From Halalkalibacterium halodurans (GTDB lineage Bacteria > Bacillota > Bacilli > Bacillales > Bacillaceae_D), in NCBI RefSeq assembly GCF_004376175.1, contig NZ_SNUY01000051.1:1-11500 (forward strand): 11,500 bases of DNA, written 5' to 3'. Below are positions 1-11,500 of the stretch, in pieces. Position 1 is the stretch's first letter. Every line of letters begins with the position of its first letter. The notes beneath the pieces were generated by a model. It saw only the letters and a list, made by a program, of their open reading frames with translations, made no database searches and was not told the origin of the DNA. The position numbers and the translations under genes were made by a program.

Positions 1-602
1 TGGAACTTCCGGTAAATGTAGCGTACTTTCAGCGATTGTGGATCTTCTTTAAATTGTTTTTTCTCTTTTTTGGTCATGGCGCTCAAGTTTTTTTGATAAT
101 AGGTACACATATCATTTTTGCACTTAAACACGTGAAAATCTTTTCGTTCTTTAATTTTTTCAAGCGGTTTAAGGCAGTGAGGACACTTAAGAATGGCCTC
201 TTTCTGATAACGACTTTTTTTATTGAAAACACACGAACACACCTTACACTGATATTGTCCTTTTCCTCCGTTATTTGCGTACAAATACGCAGAAGGAGCA
301 CCACACTTCGGACAACATAAGGTAGACGGTACGGGCGTAGAATTCGCTCGTCGCTGTACTGGTTTTAACGGTTTCCCTTTGGATTGAAGGTGTTCCGCTA
401 ATAAAAGCTGATAATCGAGCCTTTCTAGTTTTTCAATGATAGGTAAATCATCAATTTGAAGCTTTCGATAAGGCTGATTAACAGGAGCTTCTTTTGGTTT
501 ATCGAACATGCTTTTTCCAATCAAAAGAGTAAGCAAAGTTCGAATAATTTGTTCTTGATAGTTTATAAAAGTTAATAAATAGGTTATAATTTGAGGGTAC
601 AA
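1..602 (-). CDS. Partial (N-terminal ~200 aa) double zinc-ribbon protein, probably the N-terminus of an IS transposase; the C-terminus lies beyond the left window edge
   Basis: Hand translation of the minus strand gives an uninterrupted frame from 602 down to base 1. It is absent from the track because there is no stop inside the window. Translation: (TTG)YPQIITYLLTFINYQEQIIRTLLTLLIGKSMFDKPKEAPVNQPYRKLQIDDLPIIEKLERLDYQLLLAEHLQSKGKPLKPVQRRANSTPVPSTLCCPKCGAPSAYLYANNGGKGQYQCKVCSCVFNKKSRYQKEAILKCPHCLKPLEKIKERKDFHVFKCKNDMCTYYQKNLSAMTKKEKKQFKEDPQSLKVRYIYRKF... It contains two Cys4-type ribbons (CPKC..CKVC and CPHC..CKNDMC). An in-frame TAG at 653-651 bounds the frame upstream. The TTG at 602-600 follows AAGGAAGTGA, with GGAAG ending 7 nt upstream. 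The first ATG is at 509-507 and has only a weak SD. The transposase call rests on architecture only; I do not recognise the family. Confidence 0.6.
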   Translation of the reverse strand, partial: MYPQIITYLLTFINYQEQIIRTLLTLLIGKSMFDKPKEAPVNQPYRKLQIDDLPIIEKLERLDYQLLLAEHLQSKGKPLKPVQRRANSTPVPSTLCCPKCGAPSAYLYANNGGKGQYQCKVCSCVFNKKSRYQKEAILKCPHCLKPLEKIKERKDFHVFKCKNDMCTYYQKNLSAMTKKEKKQFKEDPQSLKVRYIYRKF

Positions 603-768
603 ATTGTCACTTCCTTTTCTGGAATTGGGTGTTGTGGTAACCTCAATTATCTACAGAATTTAAGGGGGTGGCAATTTTTTTGCTTATAAAGCCCTCTAAT
701 ATAGGATTTAATAACCTATTTTTATATAAAGTTTTGACAATACGACTTCTATCATGGGAGAGTTTCAT

Positions 769-1830
769 ATGAAAATCCTATTCACCTTTTACCTCGCAAC
801 CGGTGGTGTCGTTACTTTAAACCGCCATCGATATCATGCTTTACAAAGTGATGAATGTGAGTGTCATTTTTTATATTTAAAAAACGGCTCAGGACTAAAT
901 ACAATGGGCGATGCGAGAACTTATGTAACAAATGATGATGAAGACATTAAGGCACTCCTCTATGGGAAACAATACGATGTCATTGTCGTTACGTTAGATT
1001 TTTTGTTTGTGAACAGATTACGTCGCCTCGGATATAAAGGGAAAATTATTTTCGATGTGCAAGGGTTTGGCACGGGCATCAAAGAATTATTCGATAAAGC
1101 GAACGATCATATTACAGGGGAAGTAGATGCGATCTTGTCACCTAAAACACCCCATTTAGAGCAGATAATCGCACAACACTTCCCCTCTACTCCAGCCTTT
1201 CATTTTCACAACTGCATAACGTTTTCTATGTTTACTACTAATCCACAATCAAAGCCAAAACGAACGATTATCGGTTGGGTAGGCCGAATCGAAGAAAATA
1301 AAAACTGGAGATACTTCTTACAAATCGGTGAGAAGTTGCTTAAAGAGGATCCATCGCTAGAGCTTTGGATATTTGAAGATCCTAAAGCAGCAAACCCGAG
1401 CGAAAAAAAGCATTTTCACAGTGTGGTGAAAAAATTAAAGCTAAGAAGTCATATGCGTTCACTACAGAATGTTCCTTATGAACGAATGGCTGAATTTTAT
1501 TCTTTAATCGGTCGTTCCGGTGGCTTTCTTTGTTCTACCTCCAAAAAAGAAGGCTTTGGGTATGCCGTTCTTGAAGCAATGTGCTGCAAATGCCCAGTAG
1601 TATGTACCGATTCAGATGGAATTAAAAGCTTCGTCATCGATGAACAAACAGGTTTAATTATTCCTCACAACAACGTTCCCGCCTCTGTCAATAAAGCACA
1701 GCGATTGTTAAGGGATAAACAATTTCAAAATCAATTAACATCCAATGCACGAAATTATGTCCATGAACATTTTAGCCCTGAGTTGTATCGGGATCATTTT
1801 CAGCAGATGCTTCAGTTCATTGGACTATAG
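769..1830 (+). CDS. Glycosyltransferase, GT4 (GT-B fold, retaining) family
   Basis: The C-terminal half carries the classic GT4 E-x7-E signature (KKEGFGYAVLEAMCCKCPVVCTDSDGIKSFVIDEQTGLII). The N-terminus MKILFTFY...GG is typical of the family. I prefer ATG 769 (GGGAGAG SD ending 6 nt upstream) over the track start at 754. The stop is TAG, ending at 1830. Confidence 0.85.
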   Translation: MKILFTFYLATGGVVTLNRHRYHALQSDECECHFLYLKNGSGLNTMGDARTYVTNDDEDIKALLYGKQYDVIVVTLDFLFVNRLRRLGYKGKIIFDVQGFGTGIKELFDKANDHITGEVDAILSPKTPHLEQIIAQHFPSTPAFHFHNCITFSMFTTNPQSKPKRTIIGWVGRIEENKNWRYFLQIGEKLLKEDPSLELWIFEDPKAANPSEKKHFHSVVKKLKLRSHMRSLQNVPYERMAEFYSLIGRSGGFLCSTSKKEGFGYAVLEAMCCKCPVVCTDSDGIKSFVIDEQTGLIIPHNNVPASVNKAQRLLRDKQFQNQLTSNARNYVHEHFSPELYRDHFQQMLQFIGL

Positions 1831-1959
1831 CACTAAATTGATTTTTTTGTCCTGATCTCCTATATGAGTCCACCCCTTTTATTTAAAGGATGAATATAAA
1901 AAGTGAAGAAGGATCTAATTTCCTTTTTATCTCTGTATAAAAGGAGGGAGATCATTTTT

Positions 1960-2115
1960 ATGGCTCATACGAGACTACATGCATGTCGACAAAATATCCG
2001 ACGCACTGCACAAAGCATCAGATTATGTCGCACGTTACGTGCCGAAGTTCGTGCTGATTTAAGACAATGTCGTGAAGCCTTAAGCGAATGTCGACAACAA
2101 ACACAATCTTCATAA
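1960..2115 (+). CDS. Mini-protein A, 51 aa, Arg/Cys-rich heptad-repeat (predicted coiled-coil) protein of unknown function
   Basis: The SD AAAGGAGGGAG (1940-1950) ends 9 nt before ATG 1960. The track start at GTG 1903 has no SD. Product: MAHTRLHACRQNIRRTAQSIRLCRTLRAEVRADLRQCREALSECRQQTQSS. Cys residues sit at 9, 23, 37 and 44. L/I occurs three residues before most Cys, and Arg follows every Cys. It is a paralogue of the next ORF. Confidence 0.6.
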   Translation: MAHTRLHACRQNIRRTAQSIRLCRTLRAEVRADLRQCREALSECRQQTQSS

Positions 2116-2141
2116 TCCTTTTTCAGGAAAGGAGGAACTTC

Positions 2142-2315
2142 ATGAATCCAGAATTACGTGAATGCCGTGAACAGTTGAGACAACGAAGAAACCAATTACG
2201 TCAGTGTCGTCAAGGGCTTGCGGACGCGCGTGCGGCAAGAGCAGAGTGTCGTGAGAACTTAAGAGAGTGCCGCGAGCCGTATAATGTTGCAACGATTTTT
2301 AATATCAATGTGTAA
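2142..2315 (+). CDS. Mini-protein B, 57 aa, Arg/Cys-rich heptad-repeat (predicted coiled-coil) protein, paralogue of mini-protein A
   Basis: The SD AAAGGAGG (2128-2135) ends 6 nt before ATG 2142, which lies 26 nt after the stop of mini-protein A. Product: MNPELRECREQLRQRRNQLRQCRQGLADARAARAECRENLRECREPYNVATIFNINV. It reads as heptads ELRECRE/QLRQRRN/QLRQCRQ/GLADARA/ARAECRE/NLRECRE. Cys residues sit at 8, 22, 36 and 43. A terminator follows. Confidence 0.65.
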   Translation: MNPELRECREQLRQRRNQLRQCRQGLADARAARAECRENLRECREPYNVATIFNINV

Positions 2316-2325
2316 TCATTTTCTT

Positions 2326-2361
2326 AAGAGGGGAAACATCACATCCCCTCTTTCTTTTTTT
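2326..2361 (+). terminator. Rho-independent terminator closing the mini-protein bicistron
   Basis: Perfect 9-bp stem AAGAGGGGA (2326-2334) / TCCCCTCTT (2344-2352) with a 9-nt loop, running into a T-rich tail (TTTCTTTTTTT). It starts 11 nt after the stop of mini-protein B. Confidence 0.8.
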
Positions 2362-2501
2362 ATGTACCTCTCCTTTCTCTTCGGTATCTTCTACTGACGC
2401 CCAAAAGGGTGAAAACAAGGCGACTATTATGTACAAACCACCATGTTTTTCATAGACTAGTATGACTTTTATTAGGTGAATGCTAACCAGGAGAGAGGAC
2501 C

Positions 2502-4271
2502 GTGCTAAATGTTGACATTCTTTTGCTCTGTTGTGTCATTATCACGATGTTTGTTGCGTTAATTAAAGAGTGGTTCGTACCAGAATTAACAGTTTTTTTT
2601 GCTTTATCCTCTTTAGTGTTGTTTAATGTTTTAACTCCTGGAGAAGCGCTGAATGGATTTGCAAATACCGGCGTTCATACGGTGGCGTTGCTGTTCGTCA
2701 TTGCTGCCGCTGTTTCCAAAAGTGATGTACTTCATCAGTTAATGAAGTGTGTGTTGCATCAAACAACGAACCTTTCAACGATTCTGTGCCGATTGATGAT
2801 TCCCGTCAGTAGTCTATCAGCGTTTATGAACAACACACCGATCGTGACCATGCTTATTCCGACCGTACAACAGTGGGCGATTTCCAATAAGATTAATCCA
2901 TCAAAGCTTCTTATCCCCTTGTCCTATGCCGCCATCTTAGGGGGAACGATCACATTGATTGGGACCTCAGGTAACCTAGTAATCCACGGACTCATGCTCG
3001 ATAAAGGGATTGACGGCTTTTCCATGTTTGATTTTGCTTATTTCGGCATTCCTTTAACGATCGTAGGCATTCTTTACATGGTGCTACTGGGGCATCGCTT
3101 TTTACCAGATCGAGAGCACCATGTCGCCGAACTTCAGGATACGGAACAAAGCTACATGTTCCAATTCATCGTTGAAACGTCGTCACCATTAATCGGGAAA
3201 ACAATCAAAGAAGGCATGTTACGAAACCTCGATCAGCTCTTTCTTATTCAGGTTATTCGCGAAGGAAAACGGATCGTTCCTGCCCCTAATGACGAACCGA
3301 TTCATCCCGAAGATATTCTAATTTTTTCAGGAAGTGCCGACGGGTTAATCCAATTAAAAATGATTCCTGGCTTATCGTTATTATCCGATGGGAAATACCC
3401 GTCGTTACCGGAAAACCATGCCCTAGTGGAGGTTGTGGTCTCCAGCACATCATCCCTTGTCTCGAAAAAAATCAATGAGACGAATTTCCGCGAAAAATAT
3501 GAGGCAGCCATTGTGGCCGTACAACGAAAACATAAAAAAATCCGCTCAAGAATCGGTGATATTGTCATCAAACCTGGAGATACTCTTTTACTTCTGACAG
3601 GCAAACACTTCTTATCCAGGTGGTCCGATTCAGATGATTTTTATGTCTTATCGCCAATAAAAAAAATAGCCGTTCGTCCCGTTTATGAGCGCAGGATCGT
3701 GATCGGAGTGTTGCTAATGATCGTCCTAGGCTCTGCCTTTCAATTGCTGTCCATTTTCAAACTATGTCTCATCGGTGTCGCGATCTTAATCTTCTCTAAC
3801 GTTTTAACAATGGCTGATGTTAAAAAAGCGATCAATTGGAACGTTATCATTCTTATGGGCAGCTCCATCGGTATCGGAACCGCCGTCGAAAAAACAGGCT
3901 TGGCAACGCTCCTTGCCGGGGGTATTTCTTTCGTGCAAACAGCGGTAGGTTTAGCAGGAATCCTTGTCATGTTCTTTATTGTTACGCTCATTTTGACAGA
4001 AATCATTAGTAACTTAGCCACAGCAGCGTTTATGTTTCCAATTGGCTACTCTATTTCCTTACAGCTACAGCTTGATCCGAGCATGCTTGCCATGGTGACC
4101 GCGATTGCTGCTTCATGCAGCTTTCTTTCTCCGATCGGCTATCAAACTAACCTTCTCGTCTATGGTCCTGGAGGGTATAAATTTACAGACTATGTAAAGG
4201 TCGGCTTGCCCCTCACCATTTTATGTATGATCGTGACGATCGGATTAAGTATGTATAAATGGCTGATGTAA
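2502..4271 (+). CDS. SLC13/DASS-superfamily anion permease with two central TrkA-C (RCK-C) domains; context suggests a sulfate transporter
   Basis: 589 aa. Multi-pass hydrophobic N- and C-terminal halves flank two soluble repeats with the TrkA-C pattern (…VETSSPLIGKTIKEGMLRN…ILIFSGSADGL… and …VEVVVSSTSSLVSKKINETNFREKYEAAIVAVQRKHKKI…GDTLLLLTG…). The GTG start at 2502 follows AGGAGAGAGGA. The next gene, cysC, begins 23 nt after its stop. The substrate is inferred from neighbours only. Confidence 0.8.
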   Translation: MLNVDILLLCCVIITMFVALIKEWFVPELTVFFALSSLVLFNVLTPGEALNGFANTGVHTVALLFVIAAAVSKSDVLHQLMKCVLHQTTNLSTILCRLMIPVSSLSAFMNNTPIVTMLIPTVQQWAISNKINPSKLLIPLSYAAILGGTITLIGTSGNLVIHGLMLDKGIDGFSMFDFAYFGIPLTIVGILYMVLLGHRFLPDREHHVAELQDTEQSYMFQFIVETSSPLIGKTIKEGMLRNLDQLFLIQVIREGKRIVPAPNDEPIHPEDILIFSGSADGLIQLKMIPGLSLLSDGKYPSLPENHALVEVVVSSTSSLVSKKINETNFREKYEAAIVAVQRKHKKIRSRIGDIVIKPGDTLLLLTGKHFLSRWSDSDDFYVLSPIKKIAVRPVYERRIVIGVLLMIVLGSAFQLLSIFKLCLIGVAILIFSNVLTMADVKKAINWNVIILMGSSIGIGTAVEKTGLATLLAGGISFVQTAVGLAGILVMFFIVTLILTEIISNLATAAFMFPIGYSISLQLQLDPSMLAMVTAIAASCSFLSPIGYQTNLLVYGPGGYKFTDYVKVGLPLTILCMIVTIGLSMYKWLM

Positions 4272-4294
4272 CATGATCAAAAGGAGTGACTTAC

Positions 4295-4921
4295 ATGAAA
4301 TCAAACAGCCAAGATGCTGCCAATATCGTTTGGCATCCACAGCTCGTGACGAAAAAAGCTCGAAACCAATCAAATGGTCATAAAAGTATGATGATTTGGT
4401 TTACCGGATTATCCGGATCAGGTAAATCAACGATTGCCAATGCCCTACAATCTGAGCTATTTAAACGAGGCATTCAAGTGTATGTGTTGGACGGAGACAA
4501 TCTCCGTCACGGAATAAATACCAACCTTTCCTTCTCTATGGAAGATCGAAAAGAAAATATTCGCCGAACAGCAGAAGTAGGCAAACTTTTCGTTGATGCG
4601 GGTCTGGTCGTTCTGGCCGCGCTCATTTCACCAGTAGAAGAGGAGCGGCAACGGGCACGATCACGTTTTGCAGAGGACGAATTCCTTGAAGTGTATGTTA
4701 GCTGTACATTGCAAGAGTGTGAAAAGCGTGATCCTAAAGGACTTTACAAAAAGGCGCGTAAAGGGGAAATCCCTCAATTTACAGGGATTCATCAGCCATA
4801 TGAAGAACCGAAAAACCCTGACATTTGTATCGATACGACAGATCGTACGGTGGAACAATCAATGCAAATCATTCTGCCGATTATATTAGAAAAAATCGCG
4901 TGGAAGAAGGGAAAGCAGTGA
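4295..4921 (+). CDS. cysC: Adenylyl-sulfate (APS) kinase
   Basis: P-loop [11 protein letters not shown], followed by [18 protein letters not shown] and [18 protein letters not shown] motifs characteristic of APS kinase. I prefer ATG 4295 (AAAGGAGTGA SD) over the track start GTG 4286, which lies inside that SD. Confidence 0.93.
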
Positions 4922-6057
4922 CACTGAGCATTCCCCACGGTGGATCATTAATTGATCGCACGGTAACGTCCCTTGATTTGTCTTCACTTTCAGCAGAGAT
5001 TGAATTAGATTCGATCGCTTTCTCCGATTTAGAGCTCCTCGCAAACGGAGCCTATAGCCCGCTAACAGGGTTTATGAATAAAAAAGATTACGAGTCTGTG
5101 GTGAAGACTATGCGCTTAGCCGATGGAACCGTTTGGAGCCTACCGATCACACTACCAATAACGGAAGAAACGGCTGAGTCCTTACGTATCGGCGATCAGG
5201 TAAAGCTTACCTACAATCAGACTGACTACGGAGTCTTATACCTAAAGGAGCTTTATGTTCCAGATAAAACATCGGAAGCCATGCACGTTTTTCAAACGAC
5301 CGATCACGACCATCCTGGTGTTCAACGGTTGTTTAAACGCGGAGATGTTTACGCTGCTGGACCGATTCACCTTATCCAACATCCAGCGCGAAACGATCAA
5401 TGGGCACATTATTATCGTTCCCCAAAAGAGACACGAGCTGAGTTTTCAAGACGTCAATGGAACACCGTCGTTGGCTTTCAAACGCGAAACCCGGTCCATA
5501 GAGCCCATGAATATATTCAAAAATGTGCCCTTGAAAGCGTCGATGGTCTCTTGTTGCATCCACTTGTCGGTGATACGAAAAAGGATGACATCCCTGCTGC
5601 CATTCGGATGGAAAGCTATGACGTGTTGTTGAAACATTATTATGCGAAAGATCGCGTTTATTTATCGGTGTTCCCGGCAGCCATGCGATATGCGGGGCCG
5701 AGAGAAGCTGTTTTTCATGCCATTGTCCGAAAAAATTACGGTTGCACCCACTTTATTGTTGGACGCGATCACGCCGGAGTTGGTGATTATTATGGCACCT
5801 ATGATGCTCAACAAGTTTTCACTCAATTTCCTCAAGCTGAACTTGGGATTCACATTCTTCCGTTCGAGCATAGCTTCTACTGTAAAAAGTGTGGAAGCAT
5901 GGCGAGCGCGAAAACGTGTCCGCACAAAAAAGAACATCACCTCCATTTATCAGGGACAAAGGTTCGTGAAATGCTGAGATCCGGAGTAAAGCCACCGCCG
6001 GAATTTAGTCGCCCTGAGGTCATTGACGTGTTAATGAAAGGATTAAGGAACACGTAA
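4918..6057 (+). CDS. sat: Sulfate adenylyltransferase (ATP sulfurylase)
   Basis: The product starts [14 protein letters not shown], matching the Bacillus Sat N-terminus pattern (..PHGG.L..R). Other motifs: [19 protein letters not shown] and a C-terminal [18 protein letters not shown] 4918 overlaps the cysC TGA stop (GTGA at 4918-4921), implying translational coupling. The 31 upstream codons of the track ORF lie inside cysC and are discarded. Confidence 0.93.
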
Positions 6058-6088
6058 AAGCATCCTCCTCCAAGGGGGATGCTTTTTA
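6058..6088. terminator. Shared (bidirectional) terminator hairpin between convergent sat and topB
   Basis: GCATCC (6060-6065) pairs with GGATGC (6077-6082). It is preceded by AAAA and followed by TTTTT (6083-6087), so either strand reads hairpin plus U-tract. It overlaps the topB stop at 6086-6088. Confidence 0.7.
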
Positions 6089-8251
6089 TGACTCCACAGG
6101 TTGAAACCCTAGTTTCTTCTTTTCTTTATCCCAATACAACTTCGCATCAAAGGTGTCATCTCCTTTTTTTAACCCTTTGATCACGTTCGTTGCCTCACCT
6201 TGGAGCAGCTTTTTGACATTGGCTTGTGATAGACGTTTGCCTAGGATTGTTTTACTAATCGTGAACCGGCAGCTCTTTGCCTCATAATTCGTACAGCCAT
6301 AAAACTCTCCCCGATCTAGAAGTTTTCCATCGCAGGCAAGGCATGATCCTACATATGTCGGTCGCCTTTTTTTCCTCTTTTTCGTTTTCTCCTCGAGCGC
6401 TTCTTGATCAAAGGATGAAAAATCCCACGTATTCGCGCGCTGATGCGCCTCTTTAACCAAATGATCGGAAAGCTTTTTTACTTGCTCCATAAAGGCGTGA
6501 GCATCTGCTTGACCACGTCCGATCTCAAAAAGGCGCTGTTCCCATTTTGCTGTCATTTCTGGTGACGCAAGCAGGCTAGGGCCCAAAGCTTCGATGAGTA
6601 GCTTCCCTTTCTCTGTTGCATAGACGACATTTTTTTTGATTTCAATGTACTGCCGGTCTTTGAGCAATGTAATAATCCCTGCCCTTGTCGCCTCTGTCCC
6701 GAGTCCTTCTGTTCGCATCAACACTTTCTCAAGTTCATCATCTTCCACATGCTTTCCGACCGTCTTCATTAATGTGATCAGCTGACCTTCCGTATACCGG
6801 CTCGGTGGCTTCGTTTTGCCCTCACGTACATCAGCGTGCTTCACATCACCCGTCCACCCTTCCTCTAATGGGGGAATGTCCTCATCCTTGTCATGCTTTG
6901 ATAAACCGATGATTTGTTTCCATCCTTGGTCGAGGAGTTGCTTTCCTTTCGTTAAAAAGGTCGCTCTCTCGTCAACGAGGGTTTCCACTTCCGTGTATGC
7001 GATCTTCGCTTCTCGCATGTGGGCTGCAAGAAATTGGCGAACGATCAAATCATAGAGGAGTTGTTCATCCTTGGCTAACGTTTGAACTTTTGGGACATCA
7101 TCTGTCGGTATGATCGCATAGTGATCCGTCACTTTACTCTGGTTCACGTACCGCCGATCTTGAAGCAAGTTATCCCGATCGAGTGGGAATAGGGAGGCGT
7201 ATGCGTCCTCCTGTTTGAGTAGCTGCACAATTCGCTTAGCTGCCTTCCCTTCTTCGGCTGTTAAAAAGCTAGAGTCGGTCCGGGGATAGGAAATATGACC
7301 TTTAACATATAATTTTTGCGCCACATCGAGGGTTTTTTTCGGAGAAAAGGTAAATCGTTTATTTGCTGTTGCTTGCAAACTTGAAAGATTGAACAAGTAA
7401 GGTGGTTTGAGCGTTTTCGTTTCCTTTTTAACCTTTGTTACCTTTCCCTGTTTTCCACGACAGAAGGCGGCAATTGCCTCAGCCATTGGCTGATCAAATA
7501 AACGCGTCTCCCTGTCTTTATGCCAAATGCCTTCATACTCATGTCCTTGGACGCGAAACGTCGCTTTCACTTCCCAAAACGGCTTTGACTCGAACGCTTC
7601 AATTTCTTTCTCCCGTTTAACAATCAGCGCAAGGGTCGGTGTCTGTACACGCCCTGTTGAAAAAAGACTATCGACGCCTTTTTTCTTTAATAAAAGGGTA
7701 TAAGCACGCGTCACATTCATCCCAATTAACCAATCTGCGCACGAACGACTAAGGGCTTCATGATAAAGTGGTTCTGTTGATTCAGCTGATTTTAATTGGT
7801 GAAATCCACTAACCACAGCCTGCTTCGTTAACGATGACAGCCACAAACGGCTCGTCTTCTTCTTTACCCTGCATTGTTTTAAGATGAGACGAACGATCAG
7901 TTCCCCTTCACGCCCCGCATCACCAGCCATAACAATTTCTGTTACCTCCTTGCGATGGACGAGGGAGCGAATCACCTGAAATTGATCTTTTTTCCCTCTA
8001 GAGACCCTGTGGACAAATGATTGCGGAATCAATGGCAGCGCCTCAAGCGTCCACTTTTTCCAAGACGGATCGTACTGTTCTGGGGGACAAAGCTCACACA
8101 AATGACCCACCGCCCACGTAAAAAAAGCGCCTGCTGGAAACTGATCACATGGGGCGACCTCTACATAGCCACGCTTATTACGATGAGGAAATGGAGCCGC
8201 TAGCTTCATTCCTTGATCTGGCTTTTCTGCAATGACAACAACCGCTCCCAT
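6086..8251 (-). CDS. topB: DNA topoisomerase III (type IA)
   Basis: TOPRIM N-terminus (VVVIAEKPDQ…, AGDAGREGELI), type IA core motifs (GRVQTPTL) and the active-site Tyr context GHISYPRTDS. The C-terminal Cys4 ribbon is CLACDGK…YGCTNYEAKSC. I prefer ATG 8251-8249 (AAAGGAGA SD, 6-nt spacing) over the track start at 8299. Confidence 0.93.
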   Translation of the reverse strand: MGAVVVIAEKPDQGMKLAAPFPHRNKRGYVEVAPCDQFPAGAFFTWAVGHLCELCPPEQYDPSWKKWTLEALPLIPQSFVHRVSRGKKDQFQVIRSLVHRKEVTEIVMAGDAGREGELIVRLILKQCRVKKKTSRLWLSSLTKQAVVSGFHQLKSAESTEPLYHEALSRSCADWLIGMNVTRAYTLLLKKKGVDSLFSTGRVQTPTLALIVKREKEIEAFESKPFWEVKATFRVQGHEYEGIWHKDRETRLFDQPMAEAIAAFCRGKQGKVTKVKKETKTLKPPYLFNLSSLQATANKRFTFSPKKTLDVAQKLYVKGHISYPRTDSSFLTAEEGKAAKRIVQLLKQEDAYASLFPLDRDNLLQDRRYVNQSKVTDHYAIIPTDDVPKVQTLAKDEQLLYDLIVRQFLAAHMREAKIAYTEVETLVDERATFLTKGKQLLDQGWKQIIGLSKHDKDEDIPPLEEGWTGDVKHADVREGKTKPPSRYTEGQLITLMKTVGKHVEDDELEKVLMRTEGLGTEATRAGIITLLKDRQYIEIKKNVVYATEKGKLLIEALGPSLLASPEMTAKWEQRLFEIGRGQADAHAFMEQVKKLSDHLVKEAHQRANTWDFSSFDQEALEEKTKKRKKRRPTYVGSCLACDGKLLDRGEFYGCTNYEAKSCRFTISKTILGKRLSQANVKKLLQGEATNVIKGLKKGDDTFDAKLYWDKEKKKLGFQPVES

Positions 8252-8277
8252 AACCAATCTCCTTTTCCAAATCATTA

Positions 8278-8300
8278 GAAAAACTTGGCATACCGCCAAG
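8278..8300 (-). promoter_or_regulatory. Terminator-like hairpin in the topB leader (minus strand)
   Basis: On the minus strand this reads CTTGGC-GGTAT-GCCAAG followed by TTTTTC. It ends about 27 nt upstream of the topB ATG. The 6-bp stem is only moderately stable. Confidence 0.35.
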
Positions 8301-8375
8301 TCCTATAGCGAAAATCATTGTTTTGCTTATCTTTTATTCCTGAAATCGAAGTTAAGCACTCTATAGTGGAAAGAA

Positions 8376-8412
8376 ACTCGGCAATAGCCAAGGCTTTAAG
8401 TGTCAGCCGAGT
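8376..8412 (-). terminator. Candidate terminator or structured element downstream of the saccharopine-dehydrogenase-like gene
   Basis: ACTCGGC (8376-8382) pairs with GCCGAGT (8406-8412) across a 23-nt loop. On the minus strand it is followed by TTCTTTCC. It lies about 80 nt after the stop at 8494. The long loop and poor U-tract make it weak. Confidence 0.35.
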
Positions 8413-8493
8413 CTTAGTTCATTTATATAACTTCTAAACATTTTGTCTACTGCAAAAACGTTATCATTTCTTAATGTGGAACATACATTCCTA

Positions 8494-9624
8494 TTATGAA
8501 TGATTCTGCGAACAGATGCTAGTCTCATTTTGCACAAATTGCTTAGGTGTAGGTAGTGGATAGGAAAATTCCGTTCCTTTTAACGTTAATGAGATATGCT
8601 GATCGATAAATACTAGCTCAAAAAGTTCCTCAATATGAAACACCCCTTTCGGACAAGGGTGTTCGTAAAGAGCAAAAGCTACGGCTGATGCTACATGGGC
8701 TGTCATTAACGCTTCATTTTCCCCTGTGAACAGCGAGTAAACTTCCTCCTTCTCGTCCTTTCGTACACCTTTTACCTCGACCCTTACTCCATACTGTTCA
8801 GAGCCATAGGGAAAGGCGTTAAGCAAGGTGGTTAATACCTTCCGAACGGCTGGCAACGATAATAGCTTCGTAATGTGTAGTCGTCGCATCGTTGCCACGA
8901 CAGCTGTCACCAGCCGCGAATCAAAACATAACCGTGTTGAAACGGTCGGCAGATGTAATGTTCTTGCAAGAGTTTGCTGATCGGAGAATGGGAATCGATA
9001 GACCGAATGATTGCCGATCGCCTTACCGAACGAAACCTGTTTACGGTCTGTAAAGCTTTTAACTTGTCGCCAGTCGTTTTGGACCCTCACGTCAAATGAT
9101 TGATTAATCTGTTGAAACGTCCATTCCATCGCACCCTCTCCATGCTCATCACCAAGACCGAGTAATATGGAGATGTCCACTTGATGCACCTGTTCAAACA
9201 TACGAACCGCTTGCTCCACCAATAAGTTAGTTATCCCAGGTGCGAGCCCGACACTAATAACACCTGTATGCTTCACAGCGCCTCGATTTAACCCTCCTAG
9301 CTCTTTCAAGAACTTTCCATTAGCCGTAATGTCCAAATAATCAATTCCGTTTTTGGCACACAATCTAGCAAACTCTGTATGGTCTTGATCGATGCAAACG
9401 ATCACTAATTTTGGTTGGTTCAGCGCTTCAAATGCTTTCTTCGGCTGATGGATGTCCACTTGGAGCGGCTGTACCTCCCCATCTGTCTCTAGTGAAAAAC
9501 GATTCGCCTTTTCAAAATTTCTCCCCGCAGCATACACCCGGCCTGCATATCGCCTTGCGAGTAGGCGACAAATTGCGCGACCCACTTGACCATATCCCCC
9601 AATGACTACGATGTCCTCTCTCAT
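8494..9624 (-). CDS. Saccharopine dehydrogenase-like NAD(P)-binding oxidoreductase
   Basis: 376 aa. The N-terminal Rossmann motif IVVIGGYGQVGRAI is followed by the layout typical of Sacchrp_dh_NADP family proteins. The ATG follows TAAGGAGGAAAATCA. The substrate is unknown. Confidence 0.75.
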   Translation of the reverse strand: MREDIVVIGGYGQVGRAICRLLARRYAGRVYAAGRNFEKANRFSLETDGEVQPLQVDIHQPKKAFEALNQPKLVIVCIDQDHTEFARLCAKNGIDYLDITANGKFLKELGGLNRGAVKHTGVISVGLAPGITNLLVEQAVRMFEQVHQVDISILLGLGDEHGEGAMEWTFQQINQSFDVRVQNDWRQVKSFTDRKQVSFGKAIGNHSVYRFPFSDQQTLARTLHLPTVSTRLCFDSRLVTAVVATMRRLHITKLLSLPAVRKVLTTLLNAFPYGSEQYGVRVEVKGVRKDEKEEVYSLFTGENEALMTAHVASAVAFALYEHPCPKGVFHIEELFELVFIDQHISLTLKGTEFSYPLPTPKQFVQNETSICSQNHS

Positions 9625-9652
9625 TGATTTTCCTCCTTACACTTTTATAGAC

Positions 9653-9668
9653 TCTCGGCATTCGCCGA
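9653..9668. promoter_or_regulatory. GC-rich perfect palindrome CTCGGC-ATTC-GCCGAG in the leader or promoter region of the oxidoreductase gene
   Basis: 6-bp arms with a 4-nt loop, 29 nt upstream of the ATG at 9624. The same arm sequence recurs at 8377-8382/8406-8411, on the other side of the gene. Confidence 0.3.
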
Positions 9669-9708
9669 GCTTTGTGGTTCAAGGATTTTCCTCAAACCAA
9701 TTTATTTC

Positions 9709-9737
9709 ATCCCTCCTATTTTAGGTGGGATTTTTTA
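9709..9737 (+). terminator. Plus-strand intrinsic-terminator-like hairpin with no upstream plus-strand gene (orphan)
   Basis: ATCCCTCCT (9709-9717) pairs with AGGTGGGAT (9723-9731): 9 bp with one T:T mismatch and a 5-nt loop. It runs into TTTTTT (9731-9736). On the minus strand there is no U-tract after the hairpin. Confidence 0.5.
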
Positions 9738-9801
9738 ATGTTCATTTTTTAAAACTGGAAATTAATTATCAAAATATTTTCTCGAATTCGACAAGAAACA
9801 C

Positions 9802-9830
9802 TTGACTTTTCAAAAACACCACAATAATCG
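9802..9830 (+). promoter_or_regulatory. Possible sigma-A-type promoter for the transposase
   Basis: TTGACT (9802-9807) is followed after 15 nt by AATAAT (9823-9828), about 50 nt upstream of ATG 9879. The spacer is shorter than optimal, so this is tentative. Confidence 0.25.
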
Positions 9831-9878
9831 CCGGTGAAGGGATTATTTTCCCTTACTACTTGTGATTGAGGTGCCAAA

Positions 9879-11381
9879 ATGAAACCAACGTTTATTGCAC
9901 ACGAAACTTATCAAAACTTCGTTCTAAATCAGTTAAATGCCCATTATTCTGGCGGCATTCTTACCCTTGTTAATAAGGATTGGCCAGTAATTAAAAAGCT
10001 TTGGATAACTGATCTCTCTTCGGTAACTACATGGCTTGGTGATTCCTATTCCAAAAAGGGACCAAAGCCTCGTGACCCTGCTTCTATGATGCGTTCTTAT
10101 CTGCTTTCATTATTTGTTCAACCTACAAAAGGTATTACTCATTGGGTTGATCAACTTCGTCGCGTTCCGTTGTATGCAATTCTTAGCGGTTTTGAACCCG
10201 GTGACACACCAGGTGTTGGAACATTTGAAGACTTTTTCAAACGTTTATGGGCCTTCGAAAGCCCGAATGTTATGCCGAAGGTCAAACCTAAAAAGAAAAA
10301 GTCAAAAAAGAAAAAGAAGCCTAAAAAGGGTGAAAAAGCTGAACCTAAGAATCCCGGAATTGTTCGTAAACTCGTTGATCGGGCAATGCGTTATGGTTCC
10401 AAACAAAAACAACTGCCAGGAGACCGATTATTTGAGTTTTTTCAATCCCAATTTTTAGCGGTTTCTACGAAACTTGGTCTTCTTGGGGATCCCGAAGCTC
10501 TAGGTGTAGTTGGAGATGGGACACCAATTGAAACAGCTAGGTACCCGAGAAGTAAATCAACCTGTAATTGTAGTGCCCAAGGACTAACGAACTGTACTCA
10601 CCCACGCCAGTATTCACAACCCGACATCGACTCAGGCTGGGATAGTTCTAAGGAAAAGTACTTCAACGGATATCATCTCTACATGATATCCACTAGCGAT
10701 AGCCAATACGACTTACCGCTATATCCACGGCTGCATCCTGCTTCCCGGCATGATTCAGTCAGCCTAGTGGTTAGTTCAATTGAATTTTCGCAACGGTACA
10801 CCTTGGGCACGATTGATAAAATTCTTCTTGATGCAGCGCACGATGCTGAGGCCATTTATGAGCTACTTGAACATCAAAATGTGGAACCCTTCATCGATTT
10901 AAATGTTCGAACAAAGAAGAACTTTAGTACAGAAAGTGATATTCAAATATCTCCAACAGGTGTTCCAATCTGTCCGATTGGGAAGGAGATGAAGCCCAAC
11001 GGGTTTGACAAATCTCAAAATCGGCAAAAATGGCGTTGTCCACTTGCTTGCGGTACCAAAAATACATGCTCATCACCGTGTTCAAAAGCAAAATATGGTC
11101 GGACATTCCATACATTCAGAGAGGATAATCTACGATTATTTACCAAAACACCAAGGTCCTCTGAAAAGTGGAAACTTATATACAAACGAAGAACCTCTGT
11201 TGAACGTTCTAATAAAAGAGAAAAAATAGATTATCACTTGGAATCTGGACGCCACCGGTCAACAAAAATGTGGTACATTCGCCTATACGCCATAATGATG
11301 TGTCAGCACATCGATGCTTGGTACAGCAGTCAGAAAGAGCAGTTAAATATTGAAGAAATCATCTTTCCTAAAGCCGCCTAG
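9879..11381 (+). CDS. DDE transposase, IS4/IS5 superfamily, most similar in architecture to the IS1182 family
   Basis: 500 aa. The N-terminal InsH/DUF772-like segment is PRDPASMMRSYLLSLF…GTFEDFFKRLW. The catalytic triad candidates are D in VVGDGTPIE, D in LLDAAHDAEAIYELL, and E in the exact Y-x2-R-x3-E-x6-K signature YKRRTSVERSNKREK. A Cys-rich insert (CPIGK…RCPLACGTKNTCSSPCSKAKYG) lies between the second D and E, as in IS1182-type enzymes. The GAGGTG SD ends 6 nt before the ATG. Confidence 0.85.
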   Translation: MKPTFIAHETYQNFVLNQLNAHYSGGILTLVNKDWPVIKKLWITDLSSVTTWLGDSYSKKGPKPRDPASMMRSYLLSLFVQPTKGITHWVDQLRRVPLYAILSGFEPGDTPGVGTFEDFFKRLWAFESPNVMPKVKPKKKKSKKKKKPKKGEKAEPKNPGIVRKLVDRAMRYGSKQKQLPGDRLFEFFQSQFLAVSTKLGLLGDPEALGVVGDGTPIETARYPRSKSTCNCSAQGLTNCTHPRQYSQPDIDSGWDSSKEKYFNGYHLYMISTSDSQYDLPLYPRLHPASRHDSVSLVVSSIEFSQRYTLGTIDKILLDAAHDAEAIYELLEHQNVEPFIDLNVRTKKNFSTESDIQISPTGVPICPIGKEMKPNGFDKSQNRQKWRCPLACGTKNTCSSPCSKAKYGRTFHTFREDNLRLFTKTPRSSEKWKLIYKRRTSVERSNKREKIDYHLESGRHRSTKMWYIRLYAIMMCQHIDAWYSSQKEQLNIEEIIFPKAA

Positions 11382-11500
11382 TCAATTTTTAAAAAAATAA
11401 TGGCAATAGGTTTCTTTGTCATGCACATTTTTGAAAATACAATGAAAATAATGAGTGTGCAGGCCATTCCAATCCAATTTCCAGTAATTTTGGTTCATTT

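Follow-up and report, generated by a model that had tools for sequence, protein, structure and literature searches.

The DNA described here is an 11,500-nt stretch of Halalkalibacterium halodurans (contig NZ_SNUY01000051.1, positions 1 to 11,500 of the forward strand), referred to below as the window, which from position 768 onward is 95% identical to H. halodurans C-125. Its subject is a pair of small adjacent genes, A and B, that encode arginine- and cysteine-rich mini-proteins and were singled out in an earlier note made from the sequence alone. Comparison with homologues points to a rare family of coiled-coil proteins, with cysteines layered at one core position, that is tied to a glycosyltransferase gene and may serve at the surface of the endospore.

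The A-B bicistron

The genes and signals of the pair are the following.

1940-1948, + strand: Shine-Dalgarno sequence (SD) of A, AAAGGAGGG, 11 nt 5′ of the A ATG
1960-2115, + strand: mini-protein A, ATG start, 51 amino acids (aa); predicted single helix with Cys at heptad position d (residues 9, 23, 37 and 44)
2128-2136, + strand: SD of B, AAAGGAGGA, 5 nt 5′ of the B ATG
2142-2315, + strand: mini-protein B, ATG start, 57 aa; predicted helix with Cys at d (residues 8, 22, 36 and 43)
2326-2362, + strand: intrinsic terminator of the A-B bicistron, a G+C-rich hairpin with a 9-bp stem (2326-2352) followed by the U tract UUCUUUUUUU

The span of 1940-2361 first assigned to the pair proved right, running from the SD of A to the end of the terminator, while the coordinates of the two open reading frames (ORFs) have been mended to those listed. 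Each gene has its own strong SD, both of the AAAGGAGG type, and the two share one terminator, which bears out the earlier view of a self-contained bicistron. An AGGAGG-type SD recurs in every orthologous A-B spacer, and the alignment with C-125 shows the SD of B to be kept. Starting 11 nt past the B stop codon, the terminator hairpin has a folding energy of -13.7 kcal/mol (z = -3.1, with equally good folds in 0 of 200 shuffles) and is 100% identical in H. halodurans; a simple terminator scanner overlooked it solely owing to its 9-nt loop.

Arginine accounts for 11 of the 51 residues of A (22%) and 12 of the 57 of B (21%), in keeping with the one residue in five estimated earlier, and a direct count likewise agrees with the cysteine positions then given. 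The net charges of the two proteins are +7 and +4. When the heptads are lettered with Cys at d, position a reads L, I, I, R, L, L in A and L, L, L, L, R, L in B (Leu or Ile in five of six heptads), and position e reads R, A, R, R, R, R in A (Arg in five of six) and is Arg in all six heptads of B. The description of both proteins as (L/I)-R-x-C-R-x-x almost throughout was therefore apt as regards the heptads and slightly overstated as regards their uniformity, since each protein lacks Cys in two of its six d layers, where A has T and V and B has R and A. Among 200,000 residue shuffles per peptide, all Cys fell in a single register in ~0.1% and Arg followed every Cys in ~0.1%, and both features never occurred jointly. 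By BLASTP, A and B share 39% identity over 44 aa (E = 7e-8), an alignment that marks them as the tandem paralogues they had been taken for. The absence of a signal peptide or transmembrane segment was also upheld: no 19-residue Kyte-Doolittle window reaches 1.6 in the near-identical C-125 orthologues, and inspection of the window sequences revealed no hydrophobic stretch and no signal-like N-terminus.

Homologues and distribution

Relative to C-125, A has 12 synonymous and 4 non-synonymous changes, for a ratio of non-synonymous to synonymous substitution rates (dN/dS) of 0.07, and B has 14.5 and 6.5, respectively, for a ratio of 0.10. Values for A against its other orthologues are 0.16-0.49, and those for the remaining A/B pairs with unsaturated dS are 0.16-0.54, one pair not being estimable. 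These ratios, which span 0.07-0.54, answer a check raised in the earlier note and mark A and B as genuine genes under purifying selection on their amino-acid sequence.

An exhaustive HMMER search with an A+B profile over 1.84 billion cluster representatives returned only four true clusters, all A- or B-type. Synteny walking from the HMMER matches, and from homologues of the family 4 glycosyltransferase (GT4) encoded directly upstream, extended the family to 20 different sequences. They come from 12 lineages, of which eight are metagenome or SRA lineages (L006, L007/L018, L010, L021, L022, L025 and L026) and the others are H. halodurans, the window strain, Halalkalibacter lacteus (L015) and Metabacillus sp. 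Hm71 (L020). A orthologues occur in 10 of these lineages. Degenerate-pattern scans, based on the B alignment and run over genome and metagenome contigs, added only Halalkalibacter lacteus and more copies from the L007 species. A pitfall of such scans is that tandem 21-nt repeats can be read as ECRE-type heptads; one locus in an unrelated organism (L016, 5649-6164) was rejected as a spurious match of this kind, with the heptads in one frame, and a protein with ECRAPFG repeats (P0005), likewise a product of such repeats in an unrelated organism, was judged unrelated to the family.

A word-indexed protein search yielded no match for B and only the H. halodurans orthologue for A, and none of the B-type sequences looked up in a collection of 15 billion proteins was present there. 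In L025 (5390-5660), the public call for the second ORF (71 aa, EINCVQY...) lies in the wrong frame; the true B-type protein begins at a TTG in another frame and has complete ECR heptads and a Pro-Tyr (PY) tail. Since the B-type proteins are missing from the collection and the L025 frame was miscalled, the family appears to be under-annotated besides being rare.

The earlier note recognized no characterized family with this pattern, and nothing above noise has come to light since. A has no match in Pfam-A 2025 or NCBIfam 20.0, where B gives only sub-threshold coiled-coil noise (best ATG16, 15.6 bits against a cut-off of 33.7); neither protein matches PADLOC 2.0. A profile search of PDB sequences (2026 copy) has a best E-value of 0.64, and Foldseek finds no match in the PDB. 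No curated family, solved structure or paper was found that covers these proteins. A defence-system context, prompted by a GT4-conflict Pfam match, was dropped given the empty PADLOC result, and a plasmid origin was set aside after a tblastn search of B against PLSDB that produced no match.

Heptad architecture

Heptad periodicity and insertions or deletions that keep its phase are both found across the 20 sequences. Of their 85 cysteines, 84 lie in one heptad register. Among 129 heptads, position a is Leu, Ile, Val or Phe in 108 (84%), c is Glu in 80, d is Cys in 84 and Cys, Val, Thr or Ala in 113, and e is Arg in 113 (88%). The non-Cys residues at d are chiefly Val, Thr and Ala, as expected of a buried position. 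Homologues differ in length by whole heptads; for example, the L007 lineage has precisely one additional heptad (7 residues) in A and also in B. The single-gene forms (L020 and L022) comprise 8-9 heptads in phase and hold Cys in only some of their d layers; in L022 five successive d layers are V, S, T, V and A, behaviour that fits a buried core position. There are three to six Cys per chain among the homologues.

AlphaFold2 (AF2) models the A monomer as one unbroken helix over residues 2-50, with a predicted local distance difference test score (pLDDT) of 95.6, and the B monomer as one unbroken helix over residues 3-55, with a mean pLDDT of 84.9. Confidence in B exceeds 93 up to residue 40 and drops over the last 15 residues, to 51-67 in the tail. 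The predicted helices, the Cys register, the occupancy of a and e and the one-heptad length steps together give strong comparative support to the coiled coil proposed in the earlier note, and A and B are very probably real helical coiled-coil proteins. The 14-14-7 Cys spacing common to A and B stands for these two proteins but not as a universal rule, as the spacing is 21-7-7-7 in a second clade and different again in the single-gene lineages.

The tail of B carries the motif C-R-x-P-Y-x-phi-[AT]-[TA]-[IM]-x-x-x-N, conserved in 11 lineages. All B-type tails keep the Pro-Tyr, with one or more Thr or Ser no further than five residues away.

Pairing of A and B

In 10 lineages A and B are adjacent, in constant order and 17-63 nt apart. 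In each A/B genome the partners are equal in the number of heptad layers and in their Cys layers, which read CxCxCC in both partners of eight lineages and CxxCCCC in both partners of L007 and L025. A kept Cys register, adjacent pairing and a shared GT4 neighbour, for which the earlier note had looked to homologues, are thus all found. Matched Cys layers would face each other only if the helices were parallel and in register, an antiparallel pair misaligning the cysteines because their spacing is not palindromic, and the case for an A:B Cys zipper rests chiefly on this point. On this ground a parallel, Cys-apposed assembly is favoured, if narrowly.

Several observations weigh against such a zipper. 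The evidence of the matched ladders comes down to a single evolutionary transition, and type II A proteins score equally near to B proteins and to type I A proteins, so the match could stem from duplication rather than from co-evolution. A simple count of g-e′ charges places B:B at or above A:B, and A:B above a repulsive A:A, and thus does not single out A:B. Two lineages, furthermore, lack a full pair: L022 has a single gene, and L020 a chimera beside a broken A. In the latter (7084-7650), A seems to have lost its start codon and shifted frame, and its 3′ half continues in frame into the following gene, which encodes a 79-aa chimera with an A-type N-terminus (MAHNPLHNC), nine heptads, a terminal Cys-Cys and a B-type PY tail.

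Leu at a with small or beta-branched residues at d is also compatible with trimers or tetramers under Harbury-type rules. Such oligomers figure in an alternative in which A and B are bundles of two to four helices that bind metals through thiolates (Cu(I), Zn, Cd, Hg or As) or sense redox state, serving in storage, buffering or sensing, with an incidental or regulatory link to glycans. The same Cys-at-d architecture is compatible with this purpose; a trimeric or tetrameric core would give three to four thiolates per layer, as judged from coiled-coil rules and designed Cys coils, and the Arg beside each Cys would stabilize them. There is also a weak NCBIfam match to nickel-binding Mua (E = 0.025, 14.7 bits against a cut-off of 75), probably a product of coiled-coil composition. 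The proposal is nonetheless quite unlikely. The GT4 alone is an invariant neighbour, and the conserved neighbours do not include a metal transporter, a metalloregulator or a redox enzyme. The proteins lack His, Met or Cys-x-x-Cys motifs, and their Cys number varies. The V/S/T/V/A run of L022, moreover, would ruin a metal ladder but not a coiled coil. Unlike the copper-storage Csp (DUF326) proteins, four-helix bundles densely lined with Cys, and metallothioneins, to whose families they have no Pfam match, A and B have only three to six Cys per chain, and these are replaced by V, T, A and S in L022.

The GT4 neighbour and its glycan cluster

Upstream of the bicistron lies the one gene that accompanies it everywhere.

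769-1830, + strand: GT4 glycosyltransferase (Pfam Glycos_transf_1, E = 1e-27), upstream partner in all lineages

The likely start of this gene is the ATG of MKILFTFY at 769, rather than 754. The earlier note left open whether the neighbourhood of the pair was meaningful. For the GT4 it is, all 12 lineages having a GT4 gene directly 5′ of their mini-protein gene(s); for the sulfate operon on the other side it is not, that operon being absent beside the pair in four lineages. The GT4s beside mini-proteins range from 96% down to ~46-50% identity to the window GT4. In a database search, every GT4 at least 49% identical and with readable downstream DNA was followed by mini-proteins, except that of L023 (50%), which is followed by a second GT4 and then the contig end. 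No mini-proteins lie near the GT4 of L024 (45% identity), where a Cys-rich 121-aa ORF has no family match. A functional partnership of A/B with the GT4 pathway is likely on this evidence. Many GT4 homologues of Priestia, Peribacillus and Bacillus swezeyi (~560-620 aa, 42-47% identity) carry a C-terminal Laminin_G_3/concanavalin-like fusion (PF13385), which suggests that the GT4 lineage can bear its own carbohydrate- or protein-binding module where mini-proteins are missing.

All named GT4 homologues belong to endospore-forming Bacillales. In L023, the 50%-identical GT4 adjoins a morphogenetic spore-coat gene of the BMQ_0737 family (NF052457, E = 2e-73), whose companion shows only weak CgeB-type glycosyltransferase signals (Glyco_trans_1_2 and a faint YkvP_N). 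The coordinates of these GT4-relative neighbourhoods are 1651-2379 and 1-558 in L023 and 4030-4338 in L008, all on the minus strand, and a DUF1360 gene lies at the cluster edge in the L007/L008 species.

The wider clusters contain several GT2 and GT4 enzymes, nucleoside triphosphate transferases, a pyruvyl transferase, methyltransferases, a UDP-GlcNAc 2-epimerase with FnlA/B-like dehydratase/reductases, rmlABCD-type genes in several cases, and up to four sulfotransferases from three Pfam families. None of the clusters examined (up to 20 kb) showed an ABC exporter, a polymerase, a flippase or an initiating lipid-carrier transferase, and the sole membrane protein in ~50 kb of cluster DNA (L015 20 kb, C-125 12 kb, L006 10 kb and L018 9 kb) is the sulfate permease described below. 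In L006, a 128-aa ORF with its own SD (8264-8650, + strand) comes right after B; it has only a sub-threshold hint of an immunoglobulin-like or carbohydrate-binding module (E = 0.008), and its product may be another component of the surface layer proposed below.

Small size, a place beside a glycosyltransferase and often near sulfotransferases and synthesis of 3′-phosphoadenosine 5′-phosphosulfate (PAPS), and the invariant Tyr of the P-Y motif could also befit modified, released peptides. These would be either S- or O-glycosylated, as in the glycocins (sublancin and glycocin F), or sulfated at the B Tyr in the manner of RaxX. Such peptides are improbable here. No locus has a leader/core layout, a double-Gly site, a C39 peptidase-ABC exporter or an immunity gene. 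RaxX-type peptides come with a dedicated sulfotransferase, PAPS genes and a peptidase-exporter; sulfotransferases and PAPS genes are present in many A/B loci, and an exporter in none. The enzyme is a GT4, whereas the S-glycosyltransferase of glycocins is a GT2. AF2 predicts a long single helix, not a disulfide-stapled helical hairpin; the 14-14-7 and 21-7-7-7 spacings are asymmetric, unlike what nested disulfides need; and the heptads are conserved over the whole length. Finally, there are no sulfotransferases within ~5 kb of the pair in L018 and L021.

The left end of the window (1-767) is not homologous to C-125, which has a Sulfotransfer_1 gene upstream of the GT4. An ORF on the minus strand, running from ~558 off the left end, has Cys-x2-Cys zinc-ribbon motifs (..CCPKCGAPS..YQCKVCSCVF..LKCPHCLKPL..), typical of the N-terminus of an insertion sequence (IS) transposase. 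This suggests an insertion or rearrangement right beside the GT4 promoter region in the window strain. With a 500-aa DDE_Tnp_1 (IS4-type) transposase encoded at 9879-11381 (+ strand; Pfam E = 1.4e-10), the strain has mobile-element genes on both sides of the glycan/sulfate segment.

The sulfate operon

Past the terminator of the pair lie the following features, which are context to the bicistron and outside it.

2412-2459, + strand: box AAAACAAGGCGACTATTAT, then a sigma-K-like promoter, GTACA-N15-CATAGACTA; conserved, and apparently a separate promoter of the operon
2502-6057, + strand: sulfate uptake and activation operon, making PAPS
2502-4271, + strand: SLC13/CitMHS-type (Na-sulfate-symporter-type) permease with two TrkA_C domains
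4286-4921, + strand: adenosine 5′-phosphosulfate (APS) kinase, by profile match
~4918-6057, + strand: ATP sulfurylase; the ORF first listed began at 4825, at a TTG inside the APS kinase gene

The ATP sulfurylase start is placed at ~4918 because the C-125 counterpart has 379 aa and a 4-nt overlap with cysC. The operon follows the pair in only five lineages (window, C-125, L010, L015 and L026). In L006, L018, L021 and L025 other genes follow and there is no sulfate operon, and sulfotransferases are nearby in other lineages. APS kinase is needed solely for making the sulfuryl donor PAPS, and for this reason the locus looks like a cytoplasmic route to a sulfated glycoconjugate.

In the window, C-125, L010 and L015, both elements of GTACA-N15-CATAGA and the 15-nt gap are kept while the spacer sequence varies, and the same box and elements are visible in L026, downstream of B. 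The upstream box has the form AAAACAAGGCG(A/G)(C/A)TATTAT and stands ahead of the permease or the APS kinase operon; box and promoter lie at ~6455-6503 in L003, ~2624-2672 in L010 and ~10167-10215 in L015. The AAAACAAGGCG box is loosely SpoIIID-like (ACAAG core) and looks like an upstream regulator site. A sigma-K promoter has a five-base -35 element with C at position 4, a gap of 14-16 nt and a CATA-type -10 (PMC517825), and GTACA-N15-CATAGA is read as sigma-K-like because it matches this description. The paralogous yitBA-yisZ sulfurylase/kinase operon of B. subtilis shows late mother-cell expression (PMC517825) and is a second, sporulation-controlled set of ATP sulfurylase and APS kinase, making PAPS in the mother cell. 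The operon beside A/B, with its sigma-K-like promoter, may resemble it in this. While the PAPS made by yitBA-yisZ is thought to feed sulfolactate synthesis through yitCD (PMC517825), the operon beside A/B sits with sulfotransferases and glycosyltransferases, which suggests sulfation of a glycan (or a protein).

The position of Cys-containing ORFs directly upstream of sulfate genes, with a terminator 11 nt after the B stop, invites comparison with leader peptides that would sense the supply of Cys or Cys-tRNA and control read-through into the operon. Four lineages, however, have no sulfate operon after the pair, and where the operon is present it has its own conserved promoter-like elements past the terminator. 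Purifying selection bears on the whole peptide (dN/dS 0.07-0.5) and not on Cys codons alone, these codons are scattered rather than tandem, and no antiterminator partner was found for the 5′ arm of the terminator. Synteny and selection at the amino-acid level largely refute leader peptides, leaving them only the slimmest of chances. No RNA family of Rfam reaches its gathering threshold in the window, and there is no riboswitch ahead of the sulfate operon.

Putative expression signals of A and B

Upstream of A, the conserved elements are these.

1868-1874, + strand: box GTCCACC, a possible -35, with the core C(C/T)A(C/T)N in orthologous loci
1892-1898, + strand: box GAATATA, a probable -10, invariant in 8 loci; GCATATA within CATATAGTA in L022
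1909-1948, + strand: 5′ untranslated region (UTR), with SD-like AAGGATC at 1909-1915, anti-SD-like TTCCTTTTT at 1920-1928 and the true SD AAAGGAGGG at 1940-1948

Over nine loci the boxes follow the pattern GTC(C/T)Ayy, 17-18 nt, G(A/C)ATATA. The GCATATA of L022 can only be a -10 because it lies 16 nt from the SD, and GAATATA is probably the -10 region. Mother-cell sigma factors have a -35 of the form xmA[C/T]A (PMC517825). Although GTCCACC resembles it, the spacing is 1-2 nt too long, and the A/B -10 begins with A rather than C in eight of nine loci, which is unclean by comparison with sigma-E/K promoters of B. subtilis; both points count against the spore-surface role proposed below. By inspection, sigma-A, B, D, F, G and H do not fit and sigma-E/K fits loosely, and a sigma-70 scan of the window gave nothing relevant.

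The pyrimidine tract TTCCTTTTT is able to pair with AAGGATC or with the true SD. Minimum free energy folds hide the SD in four of six tested UTRs (window, C-125, L007 and L021; z = -1.1 to -2.5), L007 having a different, longer hairpin at the same place, while L010 has an upstream hairpin instead (z = -2.5). Z-scores and covariation for these alternative pairings are weak, and the tract may act as a switch of translation or stability, or stabilize the 5′ end.

The GAATA of the second box can also be read as a forespore-type -35 of the sigma-G/F consensus, which, with the Arg content of ~21% and the positive net charges of the window proteins, would suit Arg-rich nucleic-acid binders, either RNA chaperones or forespore DNA binders like the small acid-soluble spore proteins. 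A nucleic-acid binder was among the roles first entertained, and the homologues have weakened it. Net charge is not conserved, varying from -2 to +8 across orthologues, and a generic polycationic function is therefore unlikely. Arg is fixed at one heptad position, e, together with b, rather than spread helix-wide, and forms no basic surface; Glu at c, f and g balances it. Inspection found no acceptable sigma-F/G -10 after the GAATA box, and the genomic linkage is to the GT4, not to nucleic-acid genes. A nucleic-acid role is accordingly rated very improbable.

A proposed role at the spore surface

The reading favoured here, at a probability of roughly 40%, is that A and B form a Cys-zipper coiled coil that anchors or accepts a mother-cell-made, probably sulfated glycan of the spore surface. 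Within it, we infer parallel A:B pairing, disulfides, sporulation timing, a spore-surface site and glycosylation of B. Exporter-less glycan clusters are typical of mother-cell-made spore-surface glycans, such as those of sps/cge in B. subtilis and rml/BclA in the B. cereus group. The spore-surface placement of A/B, in itself close to an even proposition, is drawn from the exporter-less cluster, the endospore-forming hosts of the GT4, its spore-coat neighbour, the sigma-K-like promoter and the precedents of yitBA-yisZ and CgeA/CgeB.

According to this proposal, A and B would be made abundantly in the cytoplasm, their bicistron being compact and having strong SDs and a strong terminator as well as a possible structure in its 5′ UTR. 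Each would fold as a single amphipathic helix and assemble parallel and in register, most likely as an A:B dimer or an A2B2 bundle, with Leu/Ile at a and Cys (or a small or beta-branched residue) at d forming the core. Cysteines at the same layers of both partners would put the thiols of neighbouring helices face to face; reduced in the mother-cell cytoplasm, these could be oxidized at or after spore release to an interchain disulfide ladder. Arg at e beside each Cys and Glu before it at c may flank and shield the core and tune thiol reactivity. A/B would be a dedicated accessory of one GT4 lineage, and the exporter-less cluster a late mother-cell pathway to an outermost glycosylated, probably sulfated spore layer, in which the coiled coil would supply the stalk or anchor protein. 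In B, the flexible PY-x-phi-[AT]-T tail could be a docking or glycan-acceptor site for the GT4, the glycan afterwards being extended and sulfated by the remaining cluster enzymes. That B is a glycan acceptor is rather unlikely when taken singly. Less likely still is the fullest version, a heteromeric stalk with four to five stacked interchain disulfides that anchors a novel sulfated endospore glycan coat of alkaliphilic bacilli, built by the GT4, sulfotransferases and sigma-K-driven PAPS.

Two further points tell against a sulfated glycan on the spore and a glycosylated tail, respectively. No account of sulfated glycans on the spore surface of bacilli turned up in the open literature searched, and the L007 tail reads PYTIAAI, in which the tail Thr is substituted, though a Thr lies one residue past the Tyr. 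A literature search for Cys-heptad spore proteins found nothing relevant.

The strict GT4 linkage would also accord with an adaptor or ruler in a vegetative cell-envelope glycan pathway, for a sulfated secondary cell-wall polymer or an S-layer glycan, where A/B would position the GT4 and sulfotransferases or set length. Coiled-coil rulers operate in other glycan systems, for example WbdD, and the A/B promoter is not a clean sporulation consensus. Against this, the clusters (up to 20 kb) lack the lipid-carrier initiating transferase, flippase, polymerase and ABC exporter, the promoter of the PAPS operon is sigma-K-like, and the GT4 lineage is confined to endospore formers, with relatives that adjoin spore-coat genes. 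A vegetative ruler is thus placed level with the metal/redox bundle, well below the spore-surface anchor.

Comparison with known systems

Several known systems resemble the proposed spore-surface anchor in part. The Cys-rich proteins CotY/CotZ of B. subtilis, ExsY/CotY of the B. cereus group and CdeC/CdeM of Clostridioides difficile self-assemble in an outermost, glycan-associated layer; proteins of this type are made in the reducing mother cell and cross-linked by disulfides after release. They are 150-400 aa long, globular or lattice-forming, and irregular in their Cys, unlike A and B, in which Cys is strictly periodic and on one helix face, and A/B have no Pfam match to these families at E <= 1. 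The BclA nap glycoproteins of B. anthracis and B. cereus are mother-cell-made, oligomeric fibrous stalks with O-linked deoxy-sugar glycans that depend on rmlACBD, and rmlABCD-type genes occur in several A/B clusters. BclA differs, however, in its collagen-like triple helix, C1q-like head and N-terminal targeting motif, while A and B are alpha-helical, ~50 aa long and without similarity to it.

Designed Cys coiled coils (TRI/CoilSer/GRAND peptides and disulfide-stapled GCN4) share Leu-type heptads and core Cys with A/B. Their helices are joined by disulfides or bind metal through thiolates, most often at one or two Cys layers, whereas A and B are a natural conserved pair in which four to five layers hold Cys, flanked invariably by Arg, and which has a partner enzyme in the genome.

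A further parallel is CgeA, a small crust protein of B. subtilis that is glycosylated by the adjacent CgeB (PMC13577073). As in that system, a small non-enzymatic protein is encoded beside a glycosyltransferase, with adjacency in 12 of 12 lineages here at the level of genes only, and synthesis would be exporter-less and in the mother cell. The acceptor Thr of CgeA lies in an exposed flexible segment, and the B tail is predicted to be flexible, contains Thr and is conserved. The differences are that CgeA has 133 aa and forms a doughnut-shaped hexamer, while A/B are Cys-ladder helices, and that CgeB falls outside this GT4 lineage. The profile search of PDB chains found no homology to CgeA (E <= 0.6), in a 2026 copy that postdates the CgeA cryo-EM paper but in which inclusion of the CgeA entry is unconfirmed.

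Small coiled coils, and Cys-cross-linked spore-surface components encoded beside their glycosyltransferase, are thus classes already known. What is new is the ladder of several Cys layers at d, with Arg invariably alongside, together with the obligate pairing of A and B and their link to a glycan cluster equipped for sulfation.

Significance

Coiled coils with several layers of Cys at d have until now been studied mostly as designed peptides. If the interpretation is true, A/B would be, as far as known, the first natural protein family built as such a coiled coil, and helices zipped by disulfides or thiolates could be studied in them in a minimal and genetically tractable form. Their significance is tempered by a narrow distribution and an inferred function. 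The case also illustrates how micro-proteins are missed by annotation, given the absence of B from the 15-billion-protein collection and the miscalled frame of L025. If true, too, the combination of GT4, sulfotransferases and a mother-cell-type PAPS operon would flag sulfated glycans on bacterial endospores. Spore surface chemistry governs adhesion, dispersal and hydrophilicity, and a new anchoring module would be relevant to spore biology and to spore display.

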